64,000 nucleotides of DNA from Victivallales bacterium (GTDB lineage: Bacteria; Verrucomicrobiota; Lentisphaeria; Victivallales; UBA1829), in the NCBI GenBank assembly GCA_045594005.1, contig JAZNXT010000138.1, forward strand, positions 9,034 through 73,033, given 5' to 3'. A program made the translations under genes and the position numbers. Under the pieces are notes generated by a model. The model did not search any database. It saw only the letters and a program-made list of their open reading frames with translations, and was not told where the DNA came from. Of the stretch, positions 2,659-40,414 are shown piece after piece (the first letter of the stretch is position 1; every line of letters starts with the position of its first letter).

Positions 2659-3957
2659 TTACAACTCCGCCATAATGGAAAGTTTTTCTTCGATCGCAAC
2701 ATCAAGCAAACCAAGTTCATACAGAAAATCCAGCACCGTGTAACGGGTCCGGATCAACTGCGCCATACGGACAGCATGGACGAACTGTTCCCTGTCCAAT
2801 CCGATCCCGGAAGGCGTTACCGGACAGGATGCTTTTTCCAGCATGGCTTTCAATTCTTTGTAGGAGATCATCTGTTTGCGGAGGCGTTCCTGAAGTCGCG
2901 TCCAGTGTTCCCCGATCTCTTTTCTCCGTGCCGCAAGTGCTTCACCGGTACGGAATTTTGCCATCGCTGTCTTCTTCGGAGCTTCGCCGTAACAGCCGCG
3001 TGCCATGATCTGCGCGATCTCCGCCTCCCGTTCCGCCACGGTCAAACCTGCTTTCATACGGGGGACAAGTTCTTCAAAAGAGTGTTCCAGAATAAACTCA
3101 TGGAGCAGCGTGGATGCCAGAAGCCCGAGCCCCACTTTGAACCCGTGGGACACATCTTCGCCATTGAACATCAAGCCTTCCATTTCCCACACATGACTGC
3201 AGAGGTGTTCGGCTCCGGACGCGGGACGGCTGTCTTTCATCATCTGCATGGCATAACCGGTGGCGGCAAGACCGGCAAATACATTGAGCAGGTCTTTGCT
3301 GTCGGAAACCCAGTTGCGGATCTGCCCCTGAATCAGTTCCCACACATCGGGACGGATGGGATCTTCTCCCAATTCATCTGCAATGATCCAGTCCGCACCC
3401 GCCGGGATCTTGGTGAGCAGATCAGCATAACCGGATGCCATCATCGGCGCGGGAGCGGTGTTCAGAATATCCACATCCGCACACAACGCATAAGGCGCGG
3501 GACACGGCACTGTCTGCTTGGTCCCCTTCACGGAAAGCGCAGCTCCGGAAGATGTATAACCATCCACAGAACACGCGGTCGGCACACAGCAGTAGCGCAC
3601 GCCTTTGATGCCGGACGCACACTTCACCAGGTCATTGATCACGCCGGATCCCACAGCCACCGGCACGCAGTTTTCATCCATTTTTTCCGCCAGCATTTCC
3701 GAATAGGAAAAATCCGGATGCAGTTTCGGTGTGCCGGGAAAAATATATTCCGGAATGAGCGCAAATCCGGCAGCTGTCAACAATTCTTTTGCGCGTTTTC
3801 CGGCAACCAGCCAGGTATTATCGTCGGCGACCAGCCACGGTGTTTTTCCGGGAAAAACAGTTTTGAGCAGTTCAGGCAGAAAATCCAGCGCACCGGGAGC
3901 CAACAGAAAAGTATTGGTTTCCAGTCCTTCCGGGACAGCGATCACAGGCATAGACAT
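2659..3957 (-). CDS. sn-glycerol-1-phosphate dehydrogenase family protein (AraM/EgsA-like, DHQS-like iron-ADH superfamily)
   Basis: 432-aa ORF with an AAGGAG RBS before ATG 3957. It has the glycine-rich GSGVINDLVK motif and D/H/H metal-ligand contexts (ASGYADLL, SGAEHLCSHVWE, VSHGFKVG) typical of the G1PDH/AraM branch. Confidence 0.7.
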   Translation of the reverse strand: MSMPVIAVPEGLETNTFLLAPGALDFLPELLKTVFPGKTPWLVADDNTWLVAGKRAKELLTAAGFALIPEYIFPGTPKLHPDFSYSEMLAEKMDENCVPVAVGSGVINDLVKCASGIKGVRYCCVPTACSVDGYTSSGAALSVKGTKQTVPCPAPYALCADVDILNTAPAPMMASGYADLLTKIPAGADWIIADELGEDPIRPDVWELIQGQIRNWVSDSKDLLNVFAGLAATGYAMQMMKDSRPASGAEHLCSHVWEMEGLMFNGEDVSHGFKVGLGLLASTLLHEFILEHSFEELVPRMKAGLTVAEREAEIAQIMARGCYGEAPKKTAMAKFRTGEALAARRKEIGEHWTRLQERLRKQMISYKELKAMLEKASCPVTPSGIGLDREQFVHAVRMAQLIRTRYTVLDFLYELGLLDVAIEEKLSIMAEL

Positions 3958-3996
3958 AATAAAAACTCCTTAGCATTTTATGTTTTGCATTTTATG

Positions 3997-6415: not shown

Positions 6416-9400
6416 TTACATCAGCTTACCGACTTCCTGATAGAAGCTCATGCGCTTTGCAGCATCCTTTTCAGCCTTTTCAAAGAGTGCTTCAGCTTCA
6501 GCCGGGTTGGCTTTGACCAGAGCTTTGTAACGGCCTTCGCTGCGGATGAAGTCCTGATAGCTGCCGGTAGCCGGTTTGGCATCCCAGGAGAACGGAGCTT
6601 CTGCAGCCGGATTGTAACGGTAGAGCGGCCAGTAACCGGCTTCCACAGCGCGTTTCTGCTCGGTCTGGGTCTTGCTCATATCGATACCGTGAGCGATACA
6701 GGGAGCGTAAGCGAAGATGATGGACGGACCTTCGTATGCTTCAGCTTCGCGGAACGCTTTGAGGACCTGGTTGCGGTCTGCACCGAGAGCCACACTTGCC
6801 ACATACACATAGCCGTAGCTCATGCACATGAAGCCCATGTTTTTCTTGTAGGTGCGTTTACCGCCTGCGGCGAATTTCGCCACAGCAGCAGTCGGAGTGG
6901 CTTTGGAGGACTGTCCGCCGGTGTTGGAGTACACTTCGGTGTCGAGAACGAGAATGTTCACATTCTTGCCCATTGCCACGACATGGTCGATACCGGCATA
7001 ACCGATATCGTTTGCCCAGCCGTCACCACCGATGATCCACACGCTCTTGTCGCAGAAGTAGTCGGAAAGTTCATTGACTTTCGCGAGAACCGGGCAATCA
7101 CATTCCGCTGCGCACTTGGCGATGACTGCCTTTGCGGCAGACTGAGCGGCGATGGCTTCCGGAGTCTTGCTGTTGTCCCAGTGAGCCAGTGCGCCGTTGA
7201 TAGCGTCTTTGAGTTCAGCCGGAGCTTCTTCAGCAGCCAGAACTTTTTCGCAGTATTCTTTGAGGGTGGAGCGGTTGGCATCCACAGCCATTCTCATACC
7301 GAAACCGAATTCGGCGTTGTCTTCAAAGAGAGAGTTCGCCCATGCCGGACCGCGACCTTCTTTGGTCTTGGTGTACGGGATGGTGGGGAACGTACCGCCG
7401 TAGATGGAGGAACAGCCGGTGGCGTTGGCGATGATCGCGTTTTCGCCGAAGAGCTGAGCCATGAGTTTCACATAGGGAGTTTCACCGCAACCGGCGCAGG
7501 CACCGGAGAATTCAAACAGCGGCTTGCGGAGCATCGCACCCTTGACAGTGGCAACGGTGTTCTTGCCCATGACGTTGTCCGGCGTGGCATCGAAGAATTT
7601 TTCGTTGGCATTTTCGCCGGCAGCGCGTTCGGCTTCCAGCGTGGACCAGACAATCGCCTGTTTGCCTTCTTTGGCTGTCATCGGGCACTGATCAAGACAG
7701 ACACCGCAACCGGTGCAGTCTTCGATATAGACCTGAAGTTTGAACTGGAGATCATCGCAAGCCGGGACAGCCGGTTTCACTGCGAAGGAAGCAGGTGCAT
7801 CGGCAAGGTCTTTCTGGCTGATGAGTTTCGTACGGATCGCAGCGTGGGGACATGCAGAAGCGCAGATACCGCACTGGATACAGTTTTCTTTGACCCACTT
7901 CGGAACGCGGGGAGCAATACCGCGTTTTTCCAGACACGCAGTGCCGGTGGGCAGAGTGCCGTCCACAGACATGGCGGAAACCGGGATGGAATCGCCTTCG
8001 TTGTGCATGGAGGGTTCGATGATCTTCTTGGCAAATTCGCTGGCATCATCCGGAATGAGTTTGCCCGGAGTGTAGTACGGAACACCGTCGAGAGATGCCG
8101 GAACGGGAACTTCCTGACAGGCATCAGCAGCAAGATCCACCAGTTTGTTGTTCATATCGACAACATCCTGACCTTTCTTACCGAAGGTCTTGGCGTTGAG
8201 GCTCTTCATACCTTCTTCGGCTTTTTCGTAGGGAACGATGCCGGAAAGTTTGAAGTAGGCAACCATCATAACGGTATTGGCACCTTTGCCGCGGAGACCC
8301 GGCTGGCTCTTGATGATGGCTTCTGCGTTGATATTGTAGAATTTGATCTTCTTGTTGATGATCGTTTCCTGCATATCGCGGGTCAGGTGGGAGAACACTT
8401 CGTCGTTGCTGTAATGGCTGTTCAGCAGGAAGGTACCGCCTTCTTTGATGCCCTTGAGCAGGTCATAACGGCCGATGTAAGCTGCGGTGGAGCAGGAAAC
8501 AAAGTCCGGGCTGGTGATCAGATAGGTGGATTTGATGGGGGAATCGGAGAAACGGAGATGAGAGCAGGTCAGACCGAAAGACTTCTTGGAGTCGTATGCG
8601 AAGTATGCCTGTGCATCTTTGTTCGTGTACATACCGATGATCTTGATGGTGGTCTTGTTGGCACCGACAGTACCGTCGCCGCCCAAACCGTAGAACATAC
8701 AGTTGGTGGTGCCTTCCGGTTCCGTCACGATCTCTTCATCAATGGTGAGAGAGGTGTTGGTCACGTCGTCGATGATACCGACAGTGAAGCCGTGGAACGG
8801 GTTGGAGGAAGCCAGGTGTTTGTAGATCGCCAGCACCATGGACGGGCTGAATTCTTTGGAGGAAAGACCATAACGGCCGCCGATGATGGTGATGGCGGGA
8901 TCGTTCACAGCCACTTTCACATCCAGGTACAGCGGTTCGCCGATGGCACCCGGTTCTTTGGTGCGGTCGAGAACAGCAATGCGTTTCACAGTCTTCGGCA
9001 GTGCAGCAAGGAACGCTTCGGTGCAGAAGGGACGGTACAGACGGACTTTGATCAAGCCGTATTTTGTGCCGCGTTTCGCATTCAGATAGGTGATGGCTTC
9101 TTCGATGGTTTCGCAGGAGGAACCCATGGCAACGATCACATCGGTGGCATCTTCCGCACCGACATAGTCGAAGAGTTTGTAGTTACGGCCAGTCACGGCT
9201 GCAACTTTGTCCATGTATTCCTGAACGATCGCCGGAGCGGCGTTGTAGAATTTGTTGACCGTTTCACGACCCTGGAAGTAAACGTCACCATTCTGTGCGC
9301 CGACTTTGGTGATGGGTTCTTCCGGACGCAGAGCGCGGGCGCGGAATTCTTCAATGTATTTGGGTTCAACAAGTTTCGCGATATCTTCATAGGAGATTTC

Positions 9401-28755: not shown

Positions 28756-29733
28756 ATGAACCGGATCATTGTCACAGGGGGAGCGGGATTTATCGGATCG
28801 GCACTGGTGCGCTGGCTGATCCGGGAAACCGGTGATGCTGTCTGCGTGCTGGATAAACTCACTTACGCCGGGAATCCGGACGCATTGGCAGAAGTCGCCG
28901 CAGATCCGCGTTACAATTTCGTGAAAATGGATATCTGCGACCGCGCCGGAGTCCGGAAACTTTTTGCAGATTTCAAGCCGACTCACATTATGCACCTTGC
29001 GGCGGAATCCCACGTGGACCGCTCCATTGCATCCGGAGAAGAATTCATCCGCACCAATATCGACGGCACATTCAATCTGCTGGAAGCGGCACGGGAATAC
29101 GGAAAACTGGTCATGTTTCACCATATTTCCACCGATGAAGTGTATGGAGATCTGCAGGAAGGCGCGTTCACGGAAGAAAGCCCTGTCCGCCCCAGCAGTC
29201 CCTATTCCGCCAGCAAAGCGGCTGCCGATCATCTTGTCCGTGCCTGGTATCGCACTTACGGACTGCCGACCATCGTAACAAACTGTTCCAATAATTTCGG
29301 ACCGTGGCAGCATCCGGAAAAACTGATCCCCCACATGATCCACCATGCCGTCACCGGGCAATCGCTGCCGATTTACGGCAACGGATGTCAGGTGCGGGAC
29401 TGGCTGTATGTGGAAGACCATGTCCGCGCCCTGTATCTTGCGGTGACGCGCGGCAAAGCGGGCAGCACCTACAACATCGGAGCAAACTGCGAATACAGGA
29501 ATATCGATCTTGTGAAAAAGATCTGCGGCATACTGGATGAACTCAAGCCCCGTCCGGACGGAAAATCTTATACGGAACAGATCGAATTCGTGGCAGACCG
29601 TCCCGGACACGATGTGCGCTATGCCATCAATGCAGGAAAGATCAGAAAAGATTTACACTGGCTGCCGGAATTTGATTTTGAAACGGCACTACGCAAAACC
29701 GTGATATGGTATCTCAATAAAGGGTCTTTCTGA
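28756..29733 (+). CDS. rfbB: dTDP-glucose 4,6-dehydratase
   Basis: Trimmed from a TTG-extended track ORF to ATG 28756. It has [20 protein letters not shown] and [12 protein letters not shown] (YxxxK). The C-terminus is typical of RmlB. Confidence 0.93.
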
Positions 29734-31186
29734 TCAGATCGCGCCAGACTGTTTCGCCCGCCGCCTGACGGAATACAGAAAACGAGGCGAGGCAGGTTCC
29801 CATCACTCCCGGCACCAATGCACTCTGACCTGCCGCAAAAAAGTTTTCCGCCGGCAGTTTCCCGAACAGCCGTGCCTGACCGCAGATGCTCCGGGTTCCG
29901 TAAGCACTGCCCGTGGGCGGATCGTAGTCCAGACAAGTCAGCGGGGAACCGGATTCCACAACTGTGAGATGGTCTTTCAGCTGCGGATAAATGCCGGTGA
30001 TCTCCTGTTGGATCTCATCACAAAGATGCGTCTTGAAGTTCTGATATTCCTCCTGTTTCAGGCGTTCGCGGTGCGAAATCCTGAATCCTTCCGGCAAATG
30101 TTCCAGCCGCATGGTGCGGAACGCGGAAATGGAAGTTTTGCCGTCTTCACGGCTGATCTGGATCCCGGTACTGGAGGAATTTCTGCCGTCCAGCAGGATC
30201 GAATCCACATCGTTTGCAGTAAAATAAGAGGTCAGCCCTGCGGGTATCTCCACACCATCATCCACCAGAAAATAGGCACAGAAAAAGCTGCAGGATTCCT
30301 GCATCCGCCGGACACGCCGCAGGAAGGACGGTGTGCGTGCATTTTCCGGCAGTAAAGACGCGATGGCAGAAGGGTGTACAGTGAAAAACACCTGCTCCAC
30401 GGAAACGCTGGAACCATCGGAAAAATATGCGGTATTTTCGTCTTTGAACGGCAGAAGTTCCGCAGAGGTACGGATCTCGATATCCAGTTTTGCCGCTTCC
30501 CGTTTGAATCCGTCGATCATGGAATCGCCGCCGCGATGCGGACGGGCAAGATCGTGATGCAGCGCGTAGGATACCCGTGCATGAAAACTCACAGGTGCTT
30601 CATTGAAGGGCGTTCCGTGGCACATGGCAAAACTGCCTGCGGCAGTCATTGCGGCGGGATCGGTCAAATTCAATTCATTGCGCCAGACTTCCTCCACCGT
30701 TTGGATATCGCTGCCGGAAATGGTCAGTTCCAGCGGGGAAAGATCCCGCAGATCCGCCATGGGAGTGCTTTGCCAGATTTGCCGTTCCTGTTCAAAAAGT
30801 TTGCGGAGCGCATCGGCGGAACCGGGGAACGCGCGGCAGAATATATCTTCCGTCCCGGCATGTCCGCATCCGGCGGGCAGAAAAATATCGTGTGCGCCGT
30901 CCCGGAGGACGATCCGGTGGGGGATGGGTGTTCCGCCGACCATATCATCCATTCCCAATATCTGCATCATTTGAGTCATCACACCGGAAAAACCGCCGGT
31001 AAAATGATAGCCGGTATCGAAAAACGCGCCTTTGCGTCTGAACCGCCGCAGATATCCGCCGATCTCCGGCTGGGAATCAACAAGCAGCACCGGTCTTCCG
31101 GTCTTTGCCAGCAGCAGAGCGAGGGTCATGCCGCCGGCACCTGCACCGACGACCAGTGTTTTTTTTCTGTGAGCAACGGGAATCAT
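29714..31186 (-). CDS. CrtI/phytoene-desaturase-like FAD-dependent oxidoreductase
   Basis: 490 aa with the N-terminal dinucleotide fold [40 protein letters not shown] overlap with the fabG stop. Its 3' end overlaps the convergent rfbB by 20 nt. Confidence 0.8.
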
Positions 31187-31911
31187 ATCACCAGACCGCC
31201 GTTGACGGCAATGACCTGACCGTGGATATAGGTGCTGTCCGGTCCGCAGAGGAAGCTGACCACTCCTGCGATCTCCTCCGTTTTTCCGGCACGGTGCAGC
31301 GGGATCAGCGGCAGGAATTGTTCTTTTGGCAGATCTCTGGTCATATCCGTTTCGATCACGCCGGGCGCGACCACATTCACCAGGATCCCTTTTCTGCCGA
31401 CTTCCCGCGCCAATGCCTTTGCCGCTCCGATGAGCGCGGCTTTGGATGCAGAATAATTCACCTGCCCCGCCTGTCCGGTCTGACCGGATGCCGAACTGAT
31501 GATCACGATCCTTCCCCGTTTTTTTGCCAGCATCCCGAAGACCAGCGGCTGAACGGTGTTGTAGAATCCCTCCAGATTGGTGGAGAGAACGTTATCCCAT
31601 TCATTTTCATCCATAAACACAAAAAGATTGTCCCGGCTGATCCCGGAATTGTAGATCACTGCATCCGGCGGAGCATCGGAAGGGAAGGCTTCAGCAAGGA
31701 CGGCACGGGATCCGGAGCGGTCGCACACATCCAATTCCAGGATAGTGGCAGAACTGCCCGCTTCGGAGACCGCCTGAACGAGAGATTCCGAATCGCTGCC
31801 TTTTTTCCGGCAGGTGGCAAAAATATCGAATCCGTCTTTTGCAAGGCGGATGGCGATGGCGCGGCCGATCCCGCGGCAGCCGCCGATGATGAGAGCTTTT
31901 TTCGTATTCAC
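31183..31911 (-). CDS. fabG: 3-oxoacyl-ACP reductase (SDR)
   Basis: 242 aa with KALIIGGCRGIGRAIA and YSASKAALIGAAKAL (YxxxK). It sits between the KS and the oxidoreductase in one operon. Confidence 0.9.
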   Translation of the reverse strand: MNTKKALIIGGCRGIGRAIAIRLAKDGFDIFATCRKKGSDSESLVQAVSEAGSSATILELDVCDRSGSRAVLAEAFPSDAPPDAVIYNSGISRDNLFVFMDENEWDNVLSTNLEGFYNTVQPLVFGMLAKKRGRIVIISSASGQTGQAGQVNYSASKAALIGAAKALAREVGRKGILVNVVAPGVIETDMTRDLPKEQFLPLIPLHRAGKTEEIAGVVSFLCGPDSTYIHGQVIAVNGGLVI

Positions 31912-31917
31912 TGTTTT

Positions 31918-33165
31918 TCACTCCTTCCAGCGTCTGAACAGCAATGCGGTGTTGTGACCGCCGAAGCCCAGACTGTTGACTATGGCATATTCTGTATTGA
32001 CTTGTTTTGCATCCAATGCCGTCACATCCAGATCACATTCCGGATCCTGATCTGTACAGTTGATGGTGGGCGGCACGATCCCCGTGCGCAAAGTCTGAAT
32101 GGCAGAGATCGCGCCGATGGGTCCGGATGCACCGATGGTATGACCGATCATACTCTTGATGGAGTTCACGGCAATATGGTCTGCGTGCGTGCCGAATACA
32201 CTGCGGATCGCACGACATTCGCTGACATCGTTGGCTTTTGTGGCGGTCCCGTGGGCGGCGATATGCCCGATTTCTTCCGGTACGCAACCGCCGTGACACA
32301 TGGCTGTTTTCATGGCACGGGCAATACCGTCCCCTGCGGGATCGGGTGCAGTGATATGATATGCGTCGCAGGTCGCACCGTATCCGGCAAATTCCGCCAA
32401 TATTTCCGCGCCCCGTTTCCGGGCGTGTTCCAATTCCTCCAGCACCAGAAGACCTGCTCCTTCGGAAAAGACGAAACCATCCCGGTTTTTATCAAACGGA
32501 CGGCTTGCTTTCTGCGGATCGTCATTGCGCGTACTCAACGCCGTGAGTGCCGCAAATCCGGAAAGGAGAGAAGGCGTGATACAGGCTTCCGAACCGCCTG
32601 CAAGCATCACATCCGCATCCCCCCGTTTGATCATCCAGAACGCCTCTCCAAGACCGTGCGCACCGGAGGCGCAGGCGGAAGCCGCAGAAAAATTGCATCC
32701 TTTGAACCCGTAACGGATCCCCAGTATCCCGGAGGCATTGTTGGAAATGAAGGTGGGGATGTAAAACGCGGAAACGCCGGACGCACCGCGGTTGGCACAG
32801 GCAATGATATTTTTTTCCAGCACCTCCAGACCGCCGGATCCGGATGCGGCAAGAACGCCGCAGCGATAAAGATCCAGCGCAGGATCATGGGGTCCCAGTC
32901 CCGCTTGTGTCATGGCTTCGTGAGCGGCGGCAACGGCAAAGCGGGTGTACCGGGCAAACCGCCGTTCCTCTTTTTTATTCACATTCTGCAATTCCAGATC
33001 GCGTACTTCGCCGCCGAATCTCACCGGCATACCGGACACATCAAAAAGGGTGAGCGGCGCGATCCCGCTTCTGCCGTGGATCAGCGTATCCCACAAGGCA
33101 TCCACACTGTTTCCGCCGCAGGAAACGGATCCCATCCCGGTAATGACGACACGCCGTTCTTTCAT
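31918..33165 (-). CDS. beta-ketoacyl-ACP synthase (FabF/FabB-type, Cys-His-His)
   Basis: Trimmed to ATG 33165 (AGGAGA RBS), giving MKERRVVITGMG. The active-site contexts are SACASG, AAHGTATKAND and IGHTIGASG. ATGA overlap with the upstream hydrolase stop. Confidence 0.92.
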   Translation of the reverse strand: MKERRVVITGMGSVSCGGNSVDALWDTLIHGRSGIAPLTLFDVSGMPVRFGGEVRDLELQNVNKKEERRFARYTRFAVAAAHEAMTQAGLGPHDPALDLYRCGVLAASGSGGLEVLEKNIIACANRGASGVSAFYIPTFISNNASGILGIRYGFKGCNFSAASACASGAHGLGEAFWMIKRGDADVMLAGGSEACITPSLLSGFAALTALSTRNDDPQKASRPFDKNRDGFVFSEGAGLLVLEELEHARKRGAEILAEFAGYGATCDAYHITAPDPAGDGIARAMKTAMCHGGCVPEEIGHIAAHGTATKANDVSECRAIRSVFGTHADHIAVNSIKSMIGHTIGASGPIGAISAIQTLRTGIVPPTINCTDQDPECDLDVTALDAKQVNTEYAIVNSLGFGGHNTALLFRRWKE

Positions 33166-34169
33166 TGTTTTTCTCCTGTAAAGCCGTGTTGTTTCAGCCA
33201 ATCCAGCAATTCGCCGGACCATTTTGCAGTTTCCGGGAATTTTTCTTTTTCGCGTGCGGTCATCAACCCCATTCCATGGGGACCGTGTTCATAAATGATG
33301 GTTTTATGGTCGATATTGTTTTCCGTGAGCGCACGATCCAGCATCCGTGCATTTTCCGGATCCACGCAGGTATCCTCCAATGTCTGCCACAAAAATGACG
33401 GGGGGAAATCCGGAGTGATCTGCTGTTCCAGAGAAAGTTTCTTCACCAGTTCATCCGGCGGATTTTTTCCGATGAGATTGGCGCGGCTTATGGCGTGGGC
33501 ATATCCTTTTTCCATCGTCACCACCGGATAACAGAACACCACAAAATCGGGCGTGGCGCGTACCTGATCCACCGGATCGTTTTCCGGAAGGGTGTGTGCA
33601 GTGGGTTCCCGCCAGGTGCAGGCAAGCCCTGCAAGATGTCCGCCTGCGGAAAATCCCATAGTACCGATCCGGTCGGGATCGATCCCGAGCTGCGGCGCAT
33701 AATAACGGATCAGCCGGATCACACGCTGTGCGGATTCCACCATTGCCGGATGGCGTTTGAAATGCCCGAACATGGAACCGAGGGGATATTTCACCGCGAT
33801 CCCGGCAATACCGTTTTGAGCGAGAAATTCTGCGATCGCGCGTCCTTCCTTCTCAAAAGCCAGCACACCGTATGCGCCGCCGGGATACACGATCACCGCG
33901 GGGATCTTTCCGGCAGATCTTTTTTCCGGCAGATGAATGGTAAAACAGTTCATCCCGTCATCATCAAAGATATGATAAAAGCGTTGTTTTTTTTCTTGCG
34001 GAGCGTGGGGAACAGCATCATTTTTCCGGTTGGGAAAAGAAAAGAGAAATGCCAGATTGTGGCGGATCTTTGTAAAATAATCGACCACGGGCGTAAAAAT
34101 GCTGCGTGTTTCCGGTTGCTGTGCCGTCATAGCGGATCCTGTCCTGTTGCTTTGAAATTTTCTGTTCAT
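33162..34169 (-). CDS. alpha/beta hydrolase (esterase/lipase-like)
   Basis: It has the GFSAGGHLA nucleophile elbow and an oxyanion-type VIVYPGGAYG. The start is uncertain (ATG 34169 or 34130). The track start at 34283 would run through the strong plus-strand promoter at 34272-34300. Confidence 0.75.
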   Translation of the reverse strand: MNRKFQSNRTGSAMTAQQPETRSIFTPVVDYFTKIRHNLAFLFSFPNRKNDAVPHAPQEKKQRFYHIFDDDGMNCFTIHLPEKRSAGKIPAVIVYPGGAYGVLAFEKEGRAIAEFLAQNGIAGIAVKYPLGSMFGHFKRHPAMVESAQRVIRLIRYYAPQLGIDPDRIGTMGFSAGGHLAGLACTWREPTAHTLPENDPVDQVRATPDFVVFCYPVVTMEKGYAHAISRANLIGKNPPDELVKKLSLEQQITPDFPPSFLWQTLEDTCVDPENARMLDRALTENNIDHKTIIYEHGPHGMGLMTAREKEKFPETAKWSGELLDWLKQHGFTGEKQ

Positions 34170-34271
34170 CAATAATGTCAATATATAATAAATTGCAGAA
34201 AAATCAAGTATTCCACCGTTTTTTTCTGTGCGGCGGATCGAATTTTTTTGAAAAAAAATGAGAATCACATC

Positions 34272-34300
34272 TTGACAAATCATCAGTCACGGTGTAGAAT
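34272..34300 (+). promoter_or_regulatory. sigma70-like promoter of the Phe-leader / DAHP synthase-pheA operon
   Basis: TTGACA (34272-34277), a 17-nt spacer, then TAGAAT (34295-34300). It lies about 30 nt upstream of the leader ATG. Confidence 0.55.
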
Positions 34301-34332
34301 AAATGGAGTAAACAACAGGAAATATCAACAAA

Positions 34333-34425
34333 ATGAATCTGAACAGCAAGTTTTTCTTTTACTTTTTCAGCTTCGCTTTCTTCTTTAGAACGCGGAGTCC
34401 GCTTGCTGTTGCTTCTTCCATTTGA
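34333..34425 (+). CDS. Phe-rich leader peptide (pheL-like)
   Basis: Hand translation gives ATG AAT CTG AAC AGC AAG TTT TTC TTT TAC TTT TTC AGC TTC GCT TTC TTC TTT AGA ACG CGG AGT CCG CTT GCT GTT GCT TCT TCC ATT TGA, i.e. MNLNSKFFFYFFSFAFFFRTRSPLAVASSI. Nine Phe and one Tyr fall within 12 residues. It sits directly upstream of a terminator/antiterminator and of pheA. Confidence 0.7.
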   Translation: MNLNSKFFFYFFSFAFFFRTRSPLAVASSI

Positions 34426-34455
34426 TCCTGAACCAGGAAAAACAACAAAATACGG

Positions 34456-34490
34456 ACTCCGCTCCTGACAAAGGCAGCGGAGTTTTTTTT
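34456..34490 (+). terminator. attenuator terminator upstream of DAHP synthase-pheA
   Basis: ACTCCGCT (34456-63) pairs with AGCGGAGT (34476-83), 8 perfect bp, followed by a T8 run to 34490. The competing 10-bp helix is GCGGAGTCCG (34392-34401) with CGGACTCCGC (34453-34462). Confidence 0.8.
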
Positions 34491-34548
34491 ATGCAGAAAA
34501 ACAATAAAAAGATCATCAGAACATAACAAAATGAAAGGACACTGAAAA

Positions 34549-35574
34549 ATGATCATCATCCTCAAAGAGAATCCCGAAGCAAAACAAATGAACGATCTTT
34601 CCGCATGGCTGCAGGAACAGGGAGTGGAACTCCACGCCACCAAAGGGCTGCATCAGACCATCCTCGGATTGATCGGTGATACCTCCCGTATCGATATCGA
34701 TCTGATCAAACAGATGGATATTGTGGACGATGTGAAACGCGTGCAGGAACCTTTCAAATGCGCCAACCGCAAATTCCACCCGCTGGATACAAAGATCACG
34801 CTGAAAAACGGTACCGTGATCGGCGGCGGTAATATGACCGTGATGGCAGGTCCCTGCTCCGTGGAATCGGAAGAACAGATCATTACCGTGGCACAGAGCG
34901 TGAAGGCTTCCGGAGCAAATCTTCTCCGTGGCGGTGCTTTCAAACCCCGTACATCGCCTTACGCGTTCCAGGGTTTGCGCGGCGAAGGGATCCGCCTCCT
35001 GCTGGAAGCAAAAAAAGTTACCGGTCTGCCCATCGTCACAGAGATCATGGATCTTTCCCAGCTGGACCTTTTTGCGGATGTGGATGTGATTCAGGTAGGC
35101 GCACGCAATATGCAGAACTTTGAACTGCTCAAACAGTTGGGACATTGCAAGAAACCCATTCTGCTGAAACGCGGGCTGGCAAATACGTATCAGGAACTGC
35201 TGATGAGTGCCGAATATATCATGGCATCCGGCAATGAATCGGTGATGCTCTGCGAACGCGGGATCCGCACATTCGAGACCTACACACGGAATACGCTGGA
35301 TATTTCCGCAATCCCCGCCCTCAAGACGCTCTCCCATCTGCCGGTGATCATCGACCCCAGCCACGCGGCGGGTCACGCACGGTTCGTCAATCCCCTCGCC
35401 CTTTCCGCCATCGCGGCGGGTGCGGATGGGTTGATCATTGAAGTCCACAACAATCCCTCCAAAGCGTTGTGCGACGGTGTGCAATCTCTCACCATGGAAG
35501 ATTTCGCCGCCCTCATGCCCCGTCTGAATGTGATGAAAGATGCCCGCATGACCTGCGAAACGATAGGAAAATAA
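34549..35574 (+). CDS. 3-deoxy-7-phosphoheptulonate (DAHP) synthase, type I-beta with N-terminal ferredoxin-like regulatory domain
   Basis: 341 aa. Core motifs are GPCSVESEEQ and FKPRTSPYAFQGL. The roughly 70-aa N-terminal extension (MIIILKENPEAKQMNDLSAWLQEQGVELH...) resembles that of Thermotoga-type enzymes. Confidence 0.93.
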   Translation: MIIILKENPEAKQMNDLSAWLQEQGVELHATKGLHQTILGLIGDTSRIDIDLIKQMDIVDDVKRVQEPFKCANRKFHPLDTKITLKNGTVIGGGNMTVMAGPCSVESEEQIITVAQSVKASGANLLRGGAFKPRTSPYAFQGLRGEGIRLLLEAKKVTGLPIVTEIMDLSQLDLFADVDVIQVGARNMQNFELLKQLGHCKKPILLKRGLANTYQELLMSAEYIMASGNESVMLCERGIRTFETYTRNTLDISAIPALKTLSHLPVIIDPSHAAGHARFVNPLALSAIAAGADGLIIEVHNNPSKALCDGVQSLTMEDFAALMPRLNVMKDARMTCETIGK

Positions 35575-35577
35575 ATC

Positions 35578-36747
35578 ATGGAAGATCACTATAAAGACGG
35601 AAATATCTCTCCGCTGAAAGAAAGCCGTGCAGAGATCGATACTATTGATTCCGAAATACTTGCGTTGTTTCAGAAACGCATGGATCTCTGCGCAAAAATC
35701 GGTGAAGAAAAACAGGCGCACGGTCTGCCGCTGGAACATCCGGAACGGGAACGGGAAATTTTGCTGAAGGTCACAAAAGATTCCCCCTCCGATCTGGCGG
35801 CATCCGCACGGATGCTTTTCAGTACACTCTTTGAATTGAGCAAAGCCTATCAACGCCGTCTGACTCCGAAAGGTTCGGAATTTGCACGGACACTGCAGCT
35901 TGCGGCGGAAAACGCGGAACACAATTTCCCGGAATCGGCACGGATCGCCTGTTGCGGTCTGCCGGGAGCCTACGCTCAAATCGCAGCAGACCGGATGTTT
36001 CCGCTGGCGGATATTTCCTATTTCAACAGTTTTTCCGCCGTATTTCAGGCAGTGGAAAAAGATTTCTGTTCCTACGGTGTCCTGCCGGTGGAAAATTCCA
36101 GTGCCGGAACCGTGGATGCAGTTTATGACCTGATGAAAGATCACAAGTTCTACATCGTGCGGAGTCTGCGGCTGAAAGTGCGTCATTCCCTGCTGCTGCC
36201 GCCGGGCGTGAAACTTGCCGGTGTGAAAGAAGTCATTTCCCATGAACAGGCATTGAAACAATGCAGCATCCGTCTGAATCAATTTGGGGACATCAAACAG
36301 ACCACAGCACCCTCCACCGCGTGGGCGGCGCGTTATGCGGCGACTTGCGGCAGAAAAGATGTGGCTGTCATTGCCAGTCCGGAGTGTGCGCCGCTTTACG
36401 GTTTGACTCTGGCGGAACGCTCCATTCAAAACAATGATTTCAATTTTACGCGATTCATCTGTATTTCCAAGAAACCGGAGATCTATCACGGCTCCGACCG
36501 GATCAGCATCATGGCGGCATTGCCTCATAAAGCGGGCAGTCTGAACAGCCTGCTTTCCCGGTTCGCCGCACTGGGATTGAACCTGACGAAACTGGAAAGC
36601 CGTCCCATTCCCGGAGAAGATTTTGAATATCTTTTCTACTTTGATTTTGAGGCGGATCTGATGAATGAGGAAGTGCGGTCGCTCCTGGCTGAACTTTCCG
36701 AAGAAAGTGAAAATTTTGTTTTTCTGGGGAATTACCGCTGTCTGTGA
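35578..36747 (+). CDS. pheA: bifunctional chorismate mutase / prephenate dehydratase (P-protein)
   Basis: 389 aa. It has an N-terminal CM helix (LKESRAEIDTIDSEILALFQKRMDL), a PDT domain with the TRF motif (NFTRFICI), and an ACT domain with ESRP (TKLESRPIPG). Confidence 0.93.
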   Translation: MEDHYKDGNISPLKESRAEIDTIDSEILALFQKRMDLCAKIGEEKQAHGLPLEHPEREREILLKVTKDSPSDLAASARMLFSTLFELSKAYQRRLTPKGSEFARTLQLAAENAEHNFPESARIACCGLPGAYAQIAADRMFPLADISYFNSFSAVFQAVEKDFCSYGVLPVENSSAGTVDAVYDLMKDHKFYIVRSLRLKVRHSLLLPPGVKLAGVKEVISHEQALKQCSIRLNQFGDIKQTTAPSTAWAARYAATCGRKDVAVIASPECAPLYGLTLAERSIQNNDFNFTRFICISKKPEIYHGSDRISIMAALPHKAGSLNSLLSRFAALGLNLTKLESRPIPGEDFEYLFYFDFEADLMNEEVRSLLAELSEESENFVFLGNYRCL

Positions 36748-36825
36748 TGTTGAAAAATGCCGCATTTCATGGTATATTAAATGCGGTATGTTTGAGATCT
36801 CAACGGCAGGAAGGAAAATAAAAAG

Positions 36826-37470
36826 ATGTCATACTACACACGATTCACAGAAAACGGCTGGAACCCGGAAGAATGGCAGATCGTGCGCAGTCCGCGGTGG
36901 CTGGATGTGAGCCATTGGGAACAGTACAGCGACCATATTGCAAATTATGTACCTGCCGATTTGAAGCCGGAAGATATGCAGATGGGACGGGATCGCACCG
37001 GAGAAAGTTATATCAGTATGCTTTTGAAAACGCCGGTCAACGGCAGCAGCCGCATTTCCACGGTGTGCGCATTTGACAGCCGCATGGCTCCGCTTCTGGT
37101 TCTTTCCAAAGAATTGGGAGATGTCCACCATGAACATCTGGAAGTGGTTTTGTACGACCGCGGGATCAATCTGTGGCATCACTTTTTCCATGACGGCAAA
37201 CCCTCCTGGAAACTGATCGGATTCATTGAACTGGATCTCAAGATCGGCGAAAAATATACGCTCTCGGCAGAAATGCGCTTTACGCATAAAGGCAAATTTC
37301 TCATCATGGCGTGCAACGAACATTCTTTCGGCTGCCGTATTGCAGACGACTGGAGTGATACTTATTATGTGGGCTTCACCGGCTGTGAAGGCAGAAACCG
37401 TTTTTATGATTTCCGCCTGACTCCCGGTGCAAGTGAATCCGAAGCCATGAAGGAAAGGACATCCGACTGA
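36826..37470 (+). CDS. hypothetical protein
   Basis: 214 aa with a GGAAGGA RBS. The composition looks coding and the antisense ORF looks like a shadow. I recognise no family; it may be a beta-sandwich protein. Confidence 0.65.
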   Translation: MSYYTRFTENGWNPEEWQIVRSPRWLDVSHWEQYSDHIANYVPADLKPEDMQMGRDRTGESYISMLLKTPVNGSSRISTVCAFDSRMAPLLVLSKELGDVHHEHLEVVLYDRGINLWHHFFHDGKPSWKLIGFIELDLKIGEKYTLSAEMRFTHKGKFLIMACNEHSFGCRIADDWSDTYYVGFTGCEGRNRFYDFRLTPGASESEAMKERTSD

Positions 37471-37701: not shown

Positions 37702-38991
37702 ATGTCAACCCAGATGACAGCCGCACAGAACGGCGAAATCACTCCGCAGATCCGTACAGTGGCGGAGTACGAAAACCGCAGCGTCGAATTTATCCGCGAA
37801 CGCGTTGCCGACGGCAGGATCGTGATCCCCGCCAATATCCACCACAAAAATCTGAATCCCGTCGGGATCGGCAGAGAACTCCTGACCAAGATCAATGCCA
37901 ATATCGGCAATTCCGCCAATTCCAGCTGTGCCGGAGCGGAAAAACAGAAACTCGCTCACGCCGTGAAATACGGAGCCGATACCGTGATGGATCTGAGTAC
38001 CGGCGGCGGGATCGATCTCATCCGCAAAGCGATCATTGAAGCAAGCCCCATTCCCGTCGGCACAGTTCCCATTTATCAGATCGTGGCAGAACACGGATCC
38101 GATGATTTTGACGGAAAATATATCCTTGAAGCCATTGAAAAACAGGCACAGCAGGGCGTGGACTATATGACCATTCACGCAGGCTTGCTCCAGCATCATG
38201 TGCCGATGGCAATGAAACGCACGCTGGGGATCGTGAGCCGCGGCGGGTCTCTCCTTGCCCGCTGGATGAAACAGCATAATGCCGAAAACCCGTTCTATAC
38301 CCATTTTGACGAAATCCTGGAGATCTGCCGCGAACACGATGTGACGCTCTCCCTCGGTGACGGGCTCCGTCCTGGATGTCTTGCCGATGCCTCCGATGAA
38401 GCACAGTTTGCCGAACTGGATACATTGGGGGAACTGGTCCGCCGCTGCCGTGCCGCCGGAGTGCAGGCAATGGTGGAAGGACCCGGTCATGTGCCGTACA
38501 ATGAAATCGAAATGAACATGAAACGGGAACGGGAAGTCTGCGGAGATGCTCCGTTCTATATTCTCGGTCCGGTGGTGATCGATTGCGCACCCGGATACGA
38601 TCATATCACAGCAGCTATCGGCGGGACTGCAGGCGCGTATCACGGTGCCGCCATGTTGTGCTATGTGACACCGATGGAACACCTCGGTCTGCCGGAAGCG
38701 GAAGATGTCCGCAACGGTGTGATCGCCTTCAAGATCGCAGCACATGCCGCCGATGTGGCATTGCAGAAACCCGGAGCCGATCGCCGCGATCATGCCATCT
38801 CCCTTGCCCGTGCCGCGTTCGATTGGGAAAAACAGTTTGATCTTGCATTGGATCCCGAACGGGCGCGGGAATTCCGGAAACGGGCGGAAGATGCCGCCGG
38901 AGTCAAAGTGCAGCACGGATCGGAATACTGCACCATGTGCGGACCGGATTTCTGTTCCATGCGGATCAGCCGCGATCTGAAAAAAGATTGA
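37702..38991 (+). CDS. thiC: phosphomethylpyrimidine synthase
   Basis: 429 aa with a GAAGGAG RBS. It has the conserved ThiC core ([20 protein letters not shown]) and the C-terminal [12 protein letters not shown] cluster motif. Confidence 0.97.
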
Positions 38992-39110: not shown

Positions 39111-39184
39111 ATAATAATTGCGGCAACAAGGTGTTTTTTTACCGCAATGAAAGAAGAAGAACAACAAATAACAACGGATCAGGC

Positions 39185-40414
39185 ATGACAAATACACGCA
39201 GAGCAGTCGTTACCGGTATCGGGGTGATCAGCCCTTCAGGCAATTCTGCCATCGAGCTTTATGATTCCCTGAAAAACGGCCGTTCCGGCGTCCGCGGGAT
39301 GACGGAATGGAAAGACTATTTCGGCAAGGTCATTGCCAATGCACCCGTCACACTGGACCCGGCACGGATCAAACAGATCAACCGGAAAGTCCGCCGGACG
39401 ATGGGTAATGCCGCGTTGTTTTCCGGTCTGGCGGCACAGGAAGCTGTCCTTCAGAGCGGGATCGATCCGGCGGAATTCACCAATGGCAGGACAGCTGTGG
39501 TGATCGGCTCCACCGTGGGGAGTGCATCCAGTATGGCGGAAGCGTGCATTGCGGAGAATGAAGGCAGGAGAGATGATCTTTCCAGCTGTCATTTTTTCCG
39601 TATGATGAGCCATTCCTCCAGTTTCAATGTGGCGGATCTTTTCGGGATCAACGGGATCCAGCTTTCCCCCTGTGCCGCATGTGCTTCCGGGCTTCAGGCA
39701 CTGGGGACCGCGCAGGAACTGATCCGGCTGGGAAAAGCGGATGTGGTTCTGGCCGGCGGTTCGGATGAATCCACCAGTCTTGTGGCATCCTCCTTCCAGC
39801 TGCTCTACGCGCTGGCGGAAGAAGAAACTGCCGAACCCGATAAACTGCCCCGTCCCTTTGACGCAAACCGCACCGGGCTTGTCTGCGCGGAAGGCGCGGG
39901 GATCCTGGTGGTGGAAGAATATGAACACGCGAAAAATCGGGGAGCGGAGATCCTTTTTGAGATCGCCGGTTATGCCACAAACTGTTCCGGATGGCATGTG
40001 AGCCATTCCGATGAAATGCAGATCGCCAACTGTATGCGTACAGCCATGCAGGATGCGGGGATCAATGCGGATGAGATCGACTATGTGAGTGCCCATGCCA
40101 CCGGCACGAAAGTGGGTGATCAGGCGGAAGCGGCGGCGATCCGGCAGGTCCTCGGGGACAAGGTGCCGGTATCCAGTCTGAAGGGTCATATCGGGCATAC
40201 GCTGGGGGCGTCCGGTGCATTGGAGCTGGCGGCAGTCCACGGGATGATGAAAGACGGGATCGTGCTGCCTACGCGGAATCTGGAAACGGTCACGGACTGT
40301 GCAGGGATCTGTCTGCCGCAGAACATTATGGAACACCGGGTCCGCACCTTTGTGAAAAACAGCATTGCCTTCGGCGGAGTGAACACCAGTATGGTTTGCA
40401 GGGTCATTGATTAA
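39185..40414 (+). CDS. beta-ketoacyl-ACP synthase (Cys-His-His; ApeR/ApeO-like)
   Basis: Trimmed from a GTG-extended ORF to ATG 39185, giving MTNTRRAVVTGIGVISPSG. Active-site contexts are CAACASG, SAHATGTKVGD and IGHTLGASG. Confidence 0.92.
   Translation: MTNTRRAVVTGIGVISPSGNSAIELYDSLKNGRSGVRGMTEWKDYFGKVIANAPVTLDPARIKQINRKVRRTMGNAALFSGLAAQEAVLQSGIDPAEFTNGRTAVVIGSTVGSASSMAEACIAENEGRRDDLSSCHFFRMMSHSSSFNVADLFGINGIQLSPCAACASGLQALGTAQELIRLGKADVVLAGGSDESTSLVASSFQLLYALAEEETAEPDKLPRPFDANRTGLVCAEGAGILVVEEYEHAKNRGAEILFEIAGYATNCSGWHVSHSDEMQIANCMRTAMQDAGINADEIDYVSAHATGTKVGDQAEAAAIRQVLGDKVPVSSLKGHIGHTLGASGALELAAVHGMMKDGIVLPTRNLETVTDCAGICLPQNIMEHRVRTFVKNSIAFGGVNTSMVCRVID

Follow-up and report, generated by a model that had tools for sequence, protein, structure and literature searches.

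The textbook case of transcription attenuation by a leader peptide rich in phenylalanine (Phe) is the enterobacterial pheL-pheA attenuator, reportedly described by Zurawski in 1978 and by Gavini and Pulakat in 1991. Here we analyse a leader of comparable design in a 64 000-nt stretch of DNA from a Victivallales bacterium (contig JAZNXT010000138.1, forward-strand positions 9034 to 73 033; the whole stretch is called the window below). It occupies window positions 34272-34490 and precedes genes for a DAHP synthase (DAHPS) with an N-terminal ferredoxin-like (FXD) regulatory domain and for a pheA-type chorismate mutase/prephenate dehydratase. From sequence comparison we consider it highly probable that this element is a genuine Phe-sensing leader-peptide transcription attenuator of the DAHPS-pheA operon. 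The mechanism is a textbook one; the phylum, Lentisphaerota, is new, and the comparative support is unusually clean.

Like E. coli pheL-pheA, the Lentisphaeria element has a short open reading frame (ORF) with a Phe run near the promoter, helices that join RNA segments 1:2, 2:3 and 3:4, and a terminator before a chorismate mutase/prephenate dehydratase gene, and its signal would likewise be the charging of tRNA-Phe. The two RNAs differ in that they share no detectable homology and that the Lentisphaeria leader has 30 codons against 15, a two-part 1:2 structure, and DAHP synthase as the first gene with pheA second. Its stop codon falls 22 nt past segment 2, whereas that of pheL lies at or before segment 2. 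In pheL, the terminating ribosome masks segment 2 itself (PMC3082878).

Other described systems share parts of this design. The aroR-aroF leader of Corynebacterium glutamicum encodes Phe-Tyr-Phe and responds to Phe limitation and not to tyrosine (Tyr) limitation, as Neshat et al. 2014 are summarized in PMC11802643. By that description it resembles the window element as leader-peptide attenuation outside Proteobacteria, with Phe and Tyr codons, of an operon headed by DAHP synthase; it differs in belonging to an actinobacterium and in its much shorter motif, the Lentisphaeria DAHPS being of the FXD type. Brewer et al. 2021 (PMC8632094) predicted the uORFC-13-1 motif 5′ of aroF, in environmental sequences as well as in Acholeplasma. 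Compared by description only, it too combines a predicted promoter, ribosome-binding site, start codon, U-rich Phe stretch and adjacent terminator with a DAHP synthase gene, but it is a prediction from 24 sequences with at least one Phe coded. In E. coli pheM-pheST, again as summarized in PMC11802643 (from Springer et al. 1985), a Phe-codon leader peptide also governs a terminator, but the system is proteobacterial and regulates a tRNA synthetase rather than a biosynthetic operon. The T-box leaders of aromatic genes in Firmicutes have the tRNA-charging signal and the terminator/antiterminator output in common with our element; unlike it, they sense uncharged tRNA directly, without an ORF, and no T-box matches here.

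Ribosome-mediated attenuators outside Proteobacteria also include His leaders in Bacillus, Peptostreptococcaceae and Erysipelotrichales (PMC2965389, PMC9413887) and a Leu leader in Streptococcus (PMC5314783). A survey of regions upstream of pheA listed possible pheL genes in Bacteroides and Desulfobacterium (PMC3082878); it would miss the Lentisphaeria case because pheA is the second gene. An initial annotation of this DNA, made from the sequence alone, had called leader-peptide attenuation of an aro/phe operon outside Proteobacteria noteworthy, which it is, but the Corynebacterium, Acholeplasma, Firmicutes and Bacteroides cases mean that it is not unprecedented. The attenuator survey of Vitreschak et al. 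in 2004 reportedly named candidates in Bacteroidetes/Chlorobi and Thermotogales as well. Our literature search, outside which much of the subscription literature lay, gave no report of such attenuation in Lentisphaerota or other phyla of the Planctomycetota-Verrucomicrobiota-Chlamydiota (PVC) group, nor of DAHPS leaders in Clostridia.

The window element has the parts that characterize leader-peptide attenuators: an ORF with a start codon and ribosome-binding site, enrichment of the cognate codon, a terminator, an antiterminator that shares a strand with it, and a 1:2 element. These parts, and the two genes that would be regulated, are as follows (MFE, minimum free energy).

34272-34300, + strand: sigma-70-type promoter, TTGACA (34272-77), 17-nt spacer, TAGAAT (34295-34300)
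34317-34322, + strand: Shine-Dalgarno-like AGGAAA, its GG 13 nt 5′ of the leader ATG
34333-34425, + strand: leader ORF, ATG to TGA, 30 codons, MNLNSKFFFYFFSFAFFFRTRSPLAVASSI, stop codon TGA at 34423-25
34342-34351, + strand: outer helix of the anti-antiterminator, 5′ strand, AACAGCAAGT, paired with 34401-34410 in the MFE fold
34351-34386, + strand: regulatory codon run, codons 7-18, FFFYFFSFAFFF, nine Phe (four TTT, five TTC) and one Tyr (TAC)
34370-34376, + strand: segment 1, GCTTCGC (codons 13-15), pairs with GCGGAGT at 34392-34398
34392-34401, + strand: segment 2, GCGGAGTCCG, codons 20-23, partner of either segment 1 or segment 3
34401-34410, + strand: outer helix, 3′ strand, GCTTGCTGTT, partner of 34342-51
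34453-34462, + strand: segment 3, CGGACTCCGC, 3′ strand of the antiterminator, overlapping the 5′ arm of the terminator
34454-34490, + strand: intrinsic terminator, stem 34454-66 with 34472-85 (RNAfold), T-run 34483-34490
34549-35574, + strand: DAHP synthase with N-terminal FXD regulatory domain, putative regulated gene 1
35578-36747, + strand: pheA-type chorismate mutase/prephenate dehydratase (CM_2, PDT and a weak ACT match), putative regulated gene 2

The promoter matches the consensus at 11 of 12 positions and was the top-scoring site of 33800-35000 in a promoter scan; transcription would start at about 34307. Phe makes up 30% of the leader codons, against 3.6% (42/1162) in DAHPS, pheA and thiC, the three nearest large genes. 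When the full 64 kb was scanned, the leader was the sole mini-ORF that combined enrichment of one residue with a terminator 3′ of it.

Segment 2 (GCGGAGTCCG) is the exact reverse complement of segment 3 (CGGACTCCGC), giving a perfect 10-bp helix; a perfect helix between leader and terminator arm as long as this one was seen once in 5000 dinucleotide-preserving shuffles (P ~2e-4). Antiterminator and terminator share a strand, since 34453-62 overlaps the arm 34454-66, and are mutually exclusive. The terminator has a perfect core of ACTCCGCT (34456-63) with AGCGGAGT (34476-83), and was overlooked by an automated terminator scan, its apparent loop being 12 nt and the range of the scan 3-8 nt. The fold of the whole leader is more stable than 200 of 200 shuffles (z = -3.5), and its MFE structure is 1:2 plus terminator. 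In this fold of the untranslated leader, a two-part structure stands upstream of the terminator with the Phe codons inside it, composed of the outer helix and an inner 1:2 helix that a small stem (34378-81 with 34387-90) adjoins. Because the two-part 1:2 structure sequesters segment 2, the element is a complete four-segment attenuator (1:2, 2:3, 3:4).

Much of this agrees with the initial annotation. It had read the promoter TTGACA-17-TAGAAT before a 30-codon ORF, counted nine Phe and one Tyr within 12 codons, paired 34392-34401 perfectly with 34453-34462 and taken the two structures as mutually exclusive, and each of these statements can be read off the sequence at those coordinates. The genes that it named downstream, a DAHPS with an N-terminal allosteric domain followed by pheA, are borne out by family matches to FXD, CM_2 and PDT. 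Two points of structure need amending. Its 8-bp terminator followed by T8 is right as to the core, but the eight Ts are 34483-34490, so that the first T is the last stem base; and it described segments 2, 3 and 4 correctly while overlooking the 1:2 structure, which has two parts, spans the Phe codons and is conserved.

The annotation had also suggested that Phe-rich mini-ORFs be sought in relatives, and had named a mini-ORF and alternative helices not conserved there as grounds for refutation; the reading withstands this test. We sampled 14 distinct Lentisphaeria DAHPS loci, the window included, with protein identities of 75-94%. Named DAHPS homologues at 74-81% identity all came from Lentisphaeria or Lentisphaerae metagenome-assembled genomes (MAGs), and the best genome match among the matches listed was in Victivallaceae (79%); another contig, L161, has a DAHPS 94% identical and the same upstream gene order as the window. 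These matches place the window in Lentisphaerota, probably in Victivallales. The mini-ORF and its helices are conserved in 12 of the 14 loci (window, L161, L162, L164, L167, L169, L171, L173, L175, L179, L180 and L001). All 12 leaders contain an ATG ORF of 29-33 codons with an in-frame Phe/Tyr run that uses both TTT and TTC. A promoter (TTGACA or TTGCAA, ~17 nt, TAnnnT, judged by eye) precedes 11 of the 12, the extract of L179 being too short, and the 11 relatives with extracts long enough have a purine-rich motif of the AGGA/GGAG type ~4-16 nt 5′ of the leader ATG. Segment 2 has the consensus TTTAGAA-N-GCGG(G/A)G, and segments 3 and 4 and the T-run are kept as well, the 3:4 hairpin leading directly into the T-run in 12/12 homologues. 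In every leader, 25-34 nt separate the start of segment 2 from the stop codon, and a further 27-47 nt separate the stop codon from segment 3. From the end of the T-run to the DAHPS ATG there are 28-63 nt across the leaders, and 170 nt in L179. The DAHPS-pheA pair is kept in Lentisphaeria loci.

L177 and L181, the remaining two loci, are nearly identical to each other and have DAHPS followed by a chorismate mutase/shikimate kinase fusion and aroC. They are without the leader and have a GC-rich region 5′ of position 3001 instead, which means that leader control is not universal in the class Lentisphaeria.

Covariation was scored over the 12 sequences in four alignment blocks, which we anchored by hand on the GCGG/CCGC cores after a plain MAFFT alignment of whole leaders had misplaced the terminator arms of L175, L180 and L162; the anchoring biases the four core pairs towards pairing.

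2:3 antiterminator: 77.8% of cells paired (37-48% in slid registers), 7 double-changed pairs, score reached by 0/500 shuffles
3:4 terminator: 85% of cells paired (38-54% in slid registers), 5 double-changed pairs, score reached by 0/500 shuffles
Inner 1:2 helix: 86.5% of cells paired (35-58% in slid registers), 0 double-changed pairs, score reached by 444/500 shuffles

The antiterminator and terminator helices thus covary. Segments 2, 3 and 4 moreover change together, reading GCGGAG/CTCCGC/GCGGAG in the window and L161, GCGGGG/CCCCGC/GCGGGG in most Lentisphaeria loci and GCGGGC/GCCCGC/GCGGGC in L175; such joint change is understood only if segment 3 pairs alternatively with both partners. The outer 1:2 helix occurs in 12/12 homologues with differing sequences (for example CAGCAAGU/GCUUGCUG, CAGCAUCC/GGAUG-CUG and GCAACCGA/UCGGUUGU), at ΔG of -12.7 to -18.1 and z of -1.6 to -5.8. 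Chance assembly in a T-rich intergenic region might be entertained, since the region is AT-rich and T-runs readily yield Phe codons, but the shuffle tests, the conservation and covariation over 12 lineages and the uniqueness of the leader in the 64-kb window leave it a practically negligible probability, and the comparative data effectively refute it already.

The same alignment separates two kinds of selection. Around segment 2 the peptide varies (RTRSP in the window, RKRGG in most loci) with the pairing retained, and in the Phe/Tyr run the residues are retained as TTT and TTC alternate, which points to selection on the RNA in the one case and on codon identity in the other. This bears on whether the mini-ORF could instead be a gene in its own right that encodes a hydrophobic peptide and has its own terminator, DAHPS-pheA being transcribed from another promoter or by unregulated read-through. 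It is a conserved ORF with promoter, ribosome-binding site and terminator, as such a gene would be, and small ORFs are annotated at the leader position in some contigs. Yet the C-terminal half of the peptide varies under retained RNA pairing, the in-ORF segment 2 covaries with the terminator arm, which a separate gene would not need, and the ORF is always linked to aromatic-pathway genes. The promoter scan, furthermore, gave no promoter-like site in the 59 nt between the end of the T-run (34490) and the DAHPS start. We regard an independent gene as extremely unlikely.

The output of the attenuator would be transcription of the two genes listed above. The DAHPS matches DAHP_snth_FXD PF18152 (residues 1-67, E 1e-20), DAHP_synth_1 PF00793 (E 1e-76) and NCBIfam NF006421 (470.7 bits, cut-off 335), and pheA starts 3 nt past its stop codon. 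Entry into the aromatic pathway would then be controlled at two levels, on transcription by the leader and, as expected, allosterically by FXD, with the weakly matched ACT domain of pheA in addition. The leader might also act mainly on translation or mRNA stability, through a masked ribosome-binding site or a processing site, given that sequestering hairpins replace terminators in some attenuators outside Proteobacteria (PMC1262725, PMC9413887). Here, by contrast, the T-run follows the 3:4 hairpin directly in all homologues, and the DAHPS has its own ribosome-binding site (AAGGA, 34535-39) 45 nt past the T-run and in no predicted helix, and we give this possibility hardly any credence.

The leader belongs to no family that we searched. 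Rfam RF01859 (Phe_leader) gave 15.3 bits and E = 5.9 over 34338-34490, against a gathering score of 55, which does not make the element a member. At gathering and permissive thresholds alike, the Rfam search gave the leader only matches at chance level, the real match in the window being a TPP riboswitch. T-box RF00230 had no match in the window at the gathering threshold, none with E up to 10 across 34200-34560, and none in 18 related loci, nor did any Rfam 15 family match any of these 18. We built a covariance model, R1, from the segment 1 to segment 2 region of the 12 Lentisphaeria leaders. It finds a single copy in the window at 73.6 bits, the window itself being one of the training sequences.

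Alternative hairpins by themselves do not identify the sensor, and T-boxes are usual for aromatic genes in Firmicutes (PMC2965389), so the switch could be real but set by an RNA-binding protein, by uncharged tRNA in the manner of a T-box, or by a small ligand, with the Phe codons incidental. As just given, neither T-box nor riboswitch models match the leader or the 18 loci. The conserved bases are those of the paired segments and the Phe/Tyr codons, and no conserved unpaired core resembling an aptamer is visible. The codons, furthermore, recur beyond Lentisphaeria. In 145 other loci with enough upstream sequence (L002-L160, among the matches listed, mostly Clostridia), 88 have a Phe/Tyr mini-ORF, defined as an ATG ORF within 400 nt upstream with at least six Phe/Tyr in 10 codons; by the same definition, the reverse complement has 2 and dinucleotide shuffles have 1.2. 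Another sensor is accordingly very improbable, and we return to a ribosome that reads Phe codons.

On that reading, RNA transcribed from about 34307 would first fold into the two-part 1:2 structure, locking segment 2, and a ribosome on the leader ORF would melt it. With Phe-tRNA scarce, a stall at about codons 7-14 would cover segment 1 together with the outer 5′ strand, so that 34392-34401 stayed free. Segment 3, emerging during the stall, could then form the 10-bp antiterminator, no terminator would form, and polymerase would read into aroF(FXD)-pheA. Stalls at codons 16-18 would start to cover segment 2, and in a scan of ribosome footprints the predicted chance that segment 3 pairs upstream drops from ~0.8 to 0.15 over these codons. 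With Phe-tRNA plentiful, the ribosome would reach the stop codon at 34423-25, between segments 2 and 3, where its bulk and the inner 1:2 helix re-forming behind it may keep segment 2 off segment 3; in the absence of 2:3, the 3:4 hairpin and T-run would end transcription near 34490. A leader left untranslated would keep 1:2 and terminate by default. Folding energies are compatible with this scheme. The 1:2 state of the window has -29.6 kcal/mol and the terminator hairpin alone -19.6, and with segment 1 masked, the antiterminator state has -28.8 kcal/mol against -31.1 for the terminator state, a closeness that fits a switch set kinetically.

What is observed is that the sequence elements exist, exclude one another, are conserved and covary, and what the genes encode; termination, read-through and the response to Phe, along with stalling positions, folding kinetics and the coupling of ribosome and polymerase, are what we infer from this. 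Several points weigh against our reading. The switch did not appear when leaders were folded at equilibrium with simulated ribosome footprints: in full-length RNA the terminator stays in the MFE structure at most stall positions, and in truncated RNA 2:3 is favoured even without a ribosome. The model consequently depends on the order of co-transcriptional folding. Automatic detection of the arms was unusable for five sequences; footprint folding was rejected as a decisive test, and only the state energies were retained. The inner 1:2 helix has no compensatory changes and does not exceed its shuffles; it varies on one side only, through G-U wobble, as is expected of a helix whose 5′ strand consists of Phe codons. 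Hand anchoring and a set of only 12 related sequences mean that the shuffle statistics overstate independence. At 13 nt, the spacing from the ribosome-binding site to the leader ATG is long. With the stop codon 22 nt past segment 2, a terminating ribosome would sit between segments 2 and 3 instead of masking segment 2 as in E. coli trpL/pheL, so the way in which a ribosome that does not stall favours termination is conjectural and unlike the textbook mechanism of E. coli. Finally, transcription-translation coupling in Lentisphaerota is an assumption of the model.

The interpretation given in the initial annotation is supported. Its switch between antiterminator and terminator on Phe stalling gains comparative support from conservation and covariation. 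The step in which the terminator is favoured stays conjectural with a stop geometry that is not the textbook one, and the equilibrium folds with footprints did not switch.

The balance of Phe and Tyr codons differs among leaders. Those of the window and L161 are the most Phe-biased, with nine Phe and one Tyr; other leaders before DAHPS-pheA mostly have five to six Phe and one Tyr, the exceptions being L162 and L180 with three Tyr each and the locus L061, described below. In L175, where the leader precedes DAHPS-aroK-aroC of the common pathway, there are five Phe and four Tyr. Among the leader-bearing loci in the matches listed, those with a prephenate dehydratase gene downstream have a Tyr share of 0.23 and the rest one of 0.44, a trend that points in the expected direction, though phylogeny confounds the comparison. 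L162 carries a second DAHP synthase (1618-2646), without FXD, at the end of a trpB-trpA cluster and directly 5′ of the leader and its FXD-DAHPS-pheA-aroB operon. L061, a MAG labelled Thermoguttaceae (Planctomycetota), has a Tyr-rich mini-ORF (MTSFTYYYNAKSYGFNYAFLF..., two Phe and four Tyr) 5′ of a DAHPS gene that a prephenate dehydratase gene follows; if its binning is right, this would be a second PVC phylum with a Phe/Tyr leader.

In comparisons of the DAHPS with genome and metagenome contigs, one of the matches listed was a Victivallaceae contig, and nearly all the others were Clostridia-like loci at 62-73% identity. This identity is high across phyla and suggests that the DAHPS gene, perhaps with its leader, may have been transferred horizontally. 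The mini-ORFs of these loci lie ~80-250 nt 5′ of the start of an FXD-type DAHPS (MKRNIFAAEYFYFYFINKS and MTTMSSAAQFYFYYYYFFTQKK are examples). With a somewhat different cut-off of at least six Phe/Tyr in 12 codons, 94 loci outside Lentisphaeria qualify among the matches listed, and 83 of these 94 have a hairpin and T-run before the gene.

One subgroup, Oscillibacter-like and with peptides of the type ...AAEYRYFSFTYYFGKAYFGLAEN, has the same design as the window element (L019 at 3810-3966, L020, L021, L022, L027, L035 and L082). An inner hairpin covers the Phe/Tyr codons (GCUUUACC...GGUAAGGC), and an outer helix and a strong terminator accompany it. At 14-15 nt past GGYAAGG, the strand CGGUUUGGCUG complements the distal 5′ arm and loop of the terminator (CAGCCAAACCG); the complementarity of GGUUUGGCUG to CAGCCAAACC in L019 is exact. 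Judged by eye, both partners are altered in L027 (GGCC with GGCC), and wobble pairs compensate in L022. Duplex energies tested for 16 GGYAAGG leaders gave a mean z of -1.2, with 4/16 below -2, which is weak for each sequence, the position of the pairing strand being the same in most. A crude gapless antiterminator test on Clostridial leaders, in which the terminator loop was not included, showed no signal, with 6.84 bp against 6.43 bp. R1 reached 28.6 bits (E ~5e-4) at best on Clostridial leaders and E of at least 0.06 on the others, most hits being at the leader position; it does not clearly link Clostridial to Lentisphaeria leaders, and both homology and convergence are possible.

We therefore put forward with some reserve, as slightly doubtful, the broader idea that the window element belongs to a large family or design of Phe/Tyr attenuators not described before, associated with FXD-type DAHPS in Lentisphaeria and across Clostridia (Oscillospiraceae, Lachnospiraceae and relatives), perhaps because gene and leader were transferred horizontally together. 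If it held, the ratio of Phe to Tyr codons would be tuned to the product of the operon, and ribosome-coupled attenuation would be common in Clostridia, where T-boxes are assumed. The RNA polymerase of B. subtilis is thought to outrun ribosomes, and Phe/Tyr leaders would offer a natural test of transcription-translation coupling in the lineages that have them. Phe/Tyr leaders in ~60% of the 145 listed loci, mostly Clostridia, and without an Rfam model, suggest that ribosome-mediated attenuation is under-counted outside Proteobacteria; their apparent abundance in Clostridia merits systematic study. The window element would extend classical leader-peptide attenuation to the PVC phylum Lentisphaerota. 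It also gives annotators a concrete RNA element at a place where gene callers miss the mini-ORF or call it a hypothetical protein.

The neighbourhood of the operon holds a second leader of a familiar kind. A TPP riboswitch (RF00059, 37536-37639, + strand, 70.1 bits, E 9.8e-12) lies directly 5′ of thiC (37702-38991, + strand; ThiC_Rad_SAM, E 1e-182), an ordinary arrangement. Between pheA and the riboswitch is a 214-aa ORF (36826-37470, + strand) with no Pfam or NCBIfam match, just 5′ of which are promoter-like sites at 36750-36778 and 36792-36819. A 749-aa ORF on the other strand (34516-36765, - strand) is antisense to the two genes with strong family matches and was rejected as almost certainly a shadow ORF.

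The flanks (29714-34283, - strand, and 39131-40414, + strand) contain beta-ketoacyl synthases at 31918-33222 (- strand) and 39131-40414 (+ strand), and also a BD-FAE/alpha-beta hydrolase and a protein resembling FAD amine oxidases. These genes could form a fatty-acid or polyketide-like cluster, divergent from the leader promoter. A mechanically called ORF at 33162-34283 overruns that promoter; its homologue in L161 is called shorter, at 322 aa.

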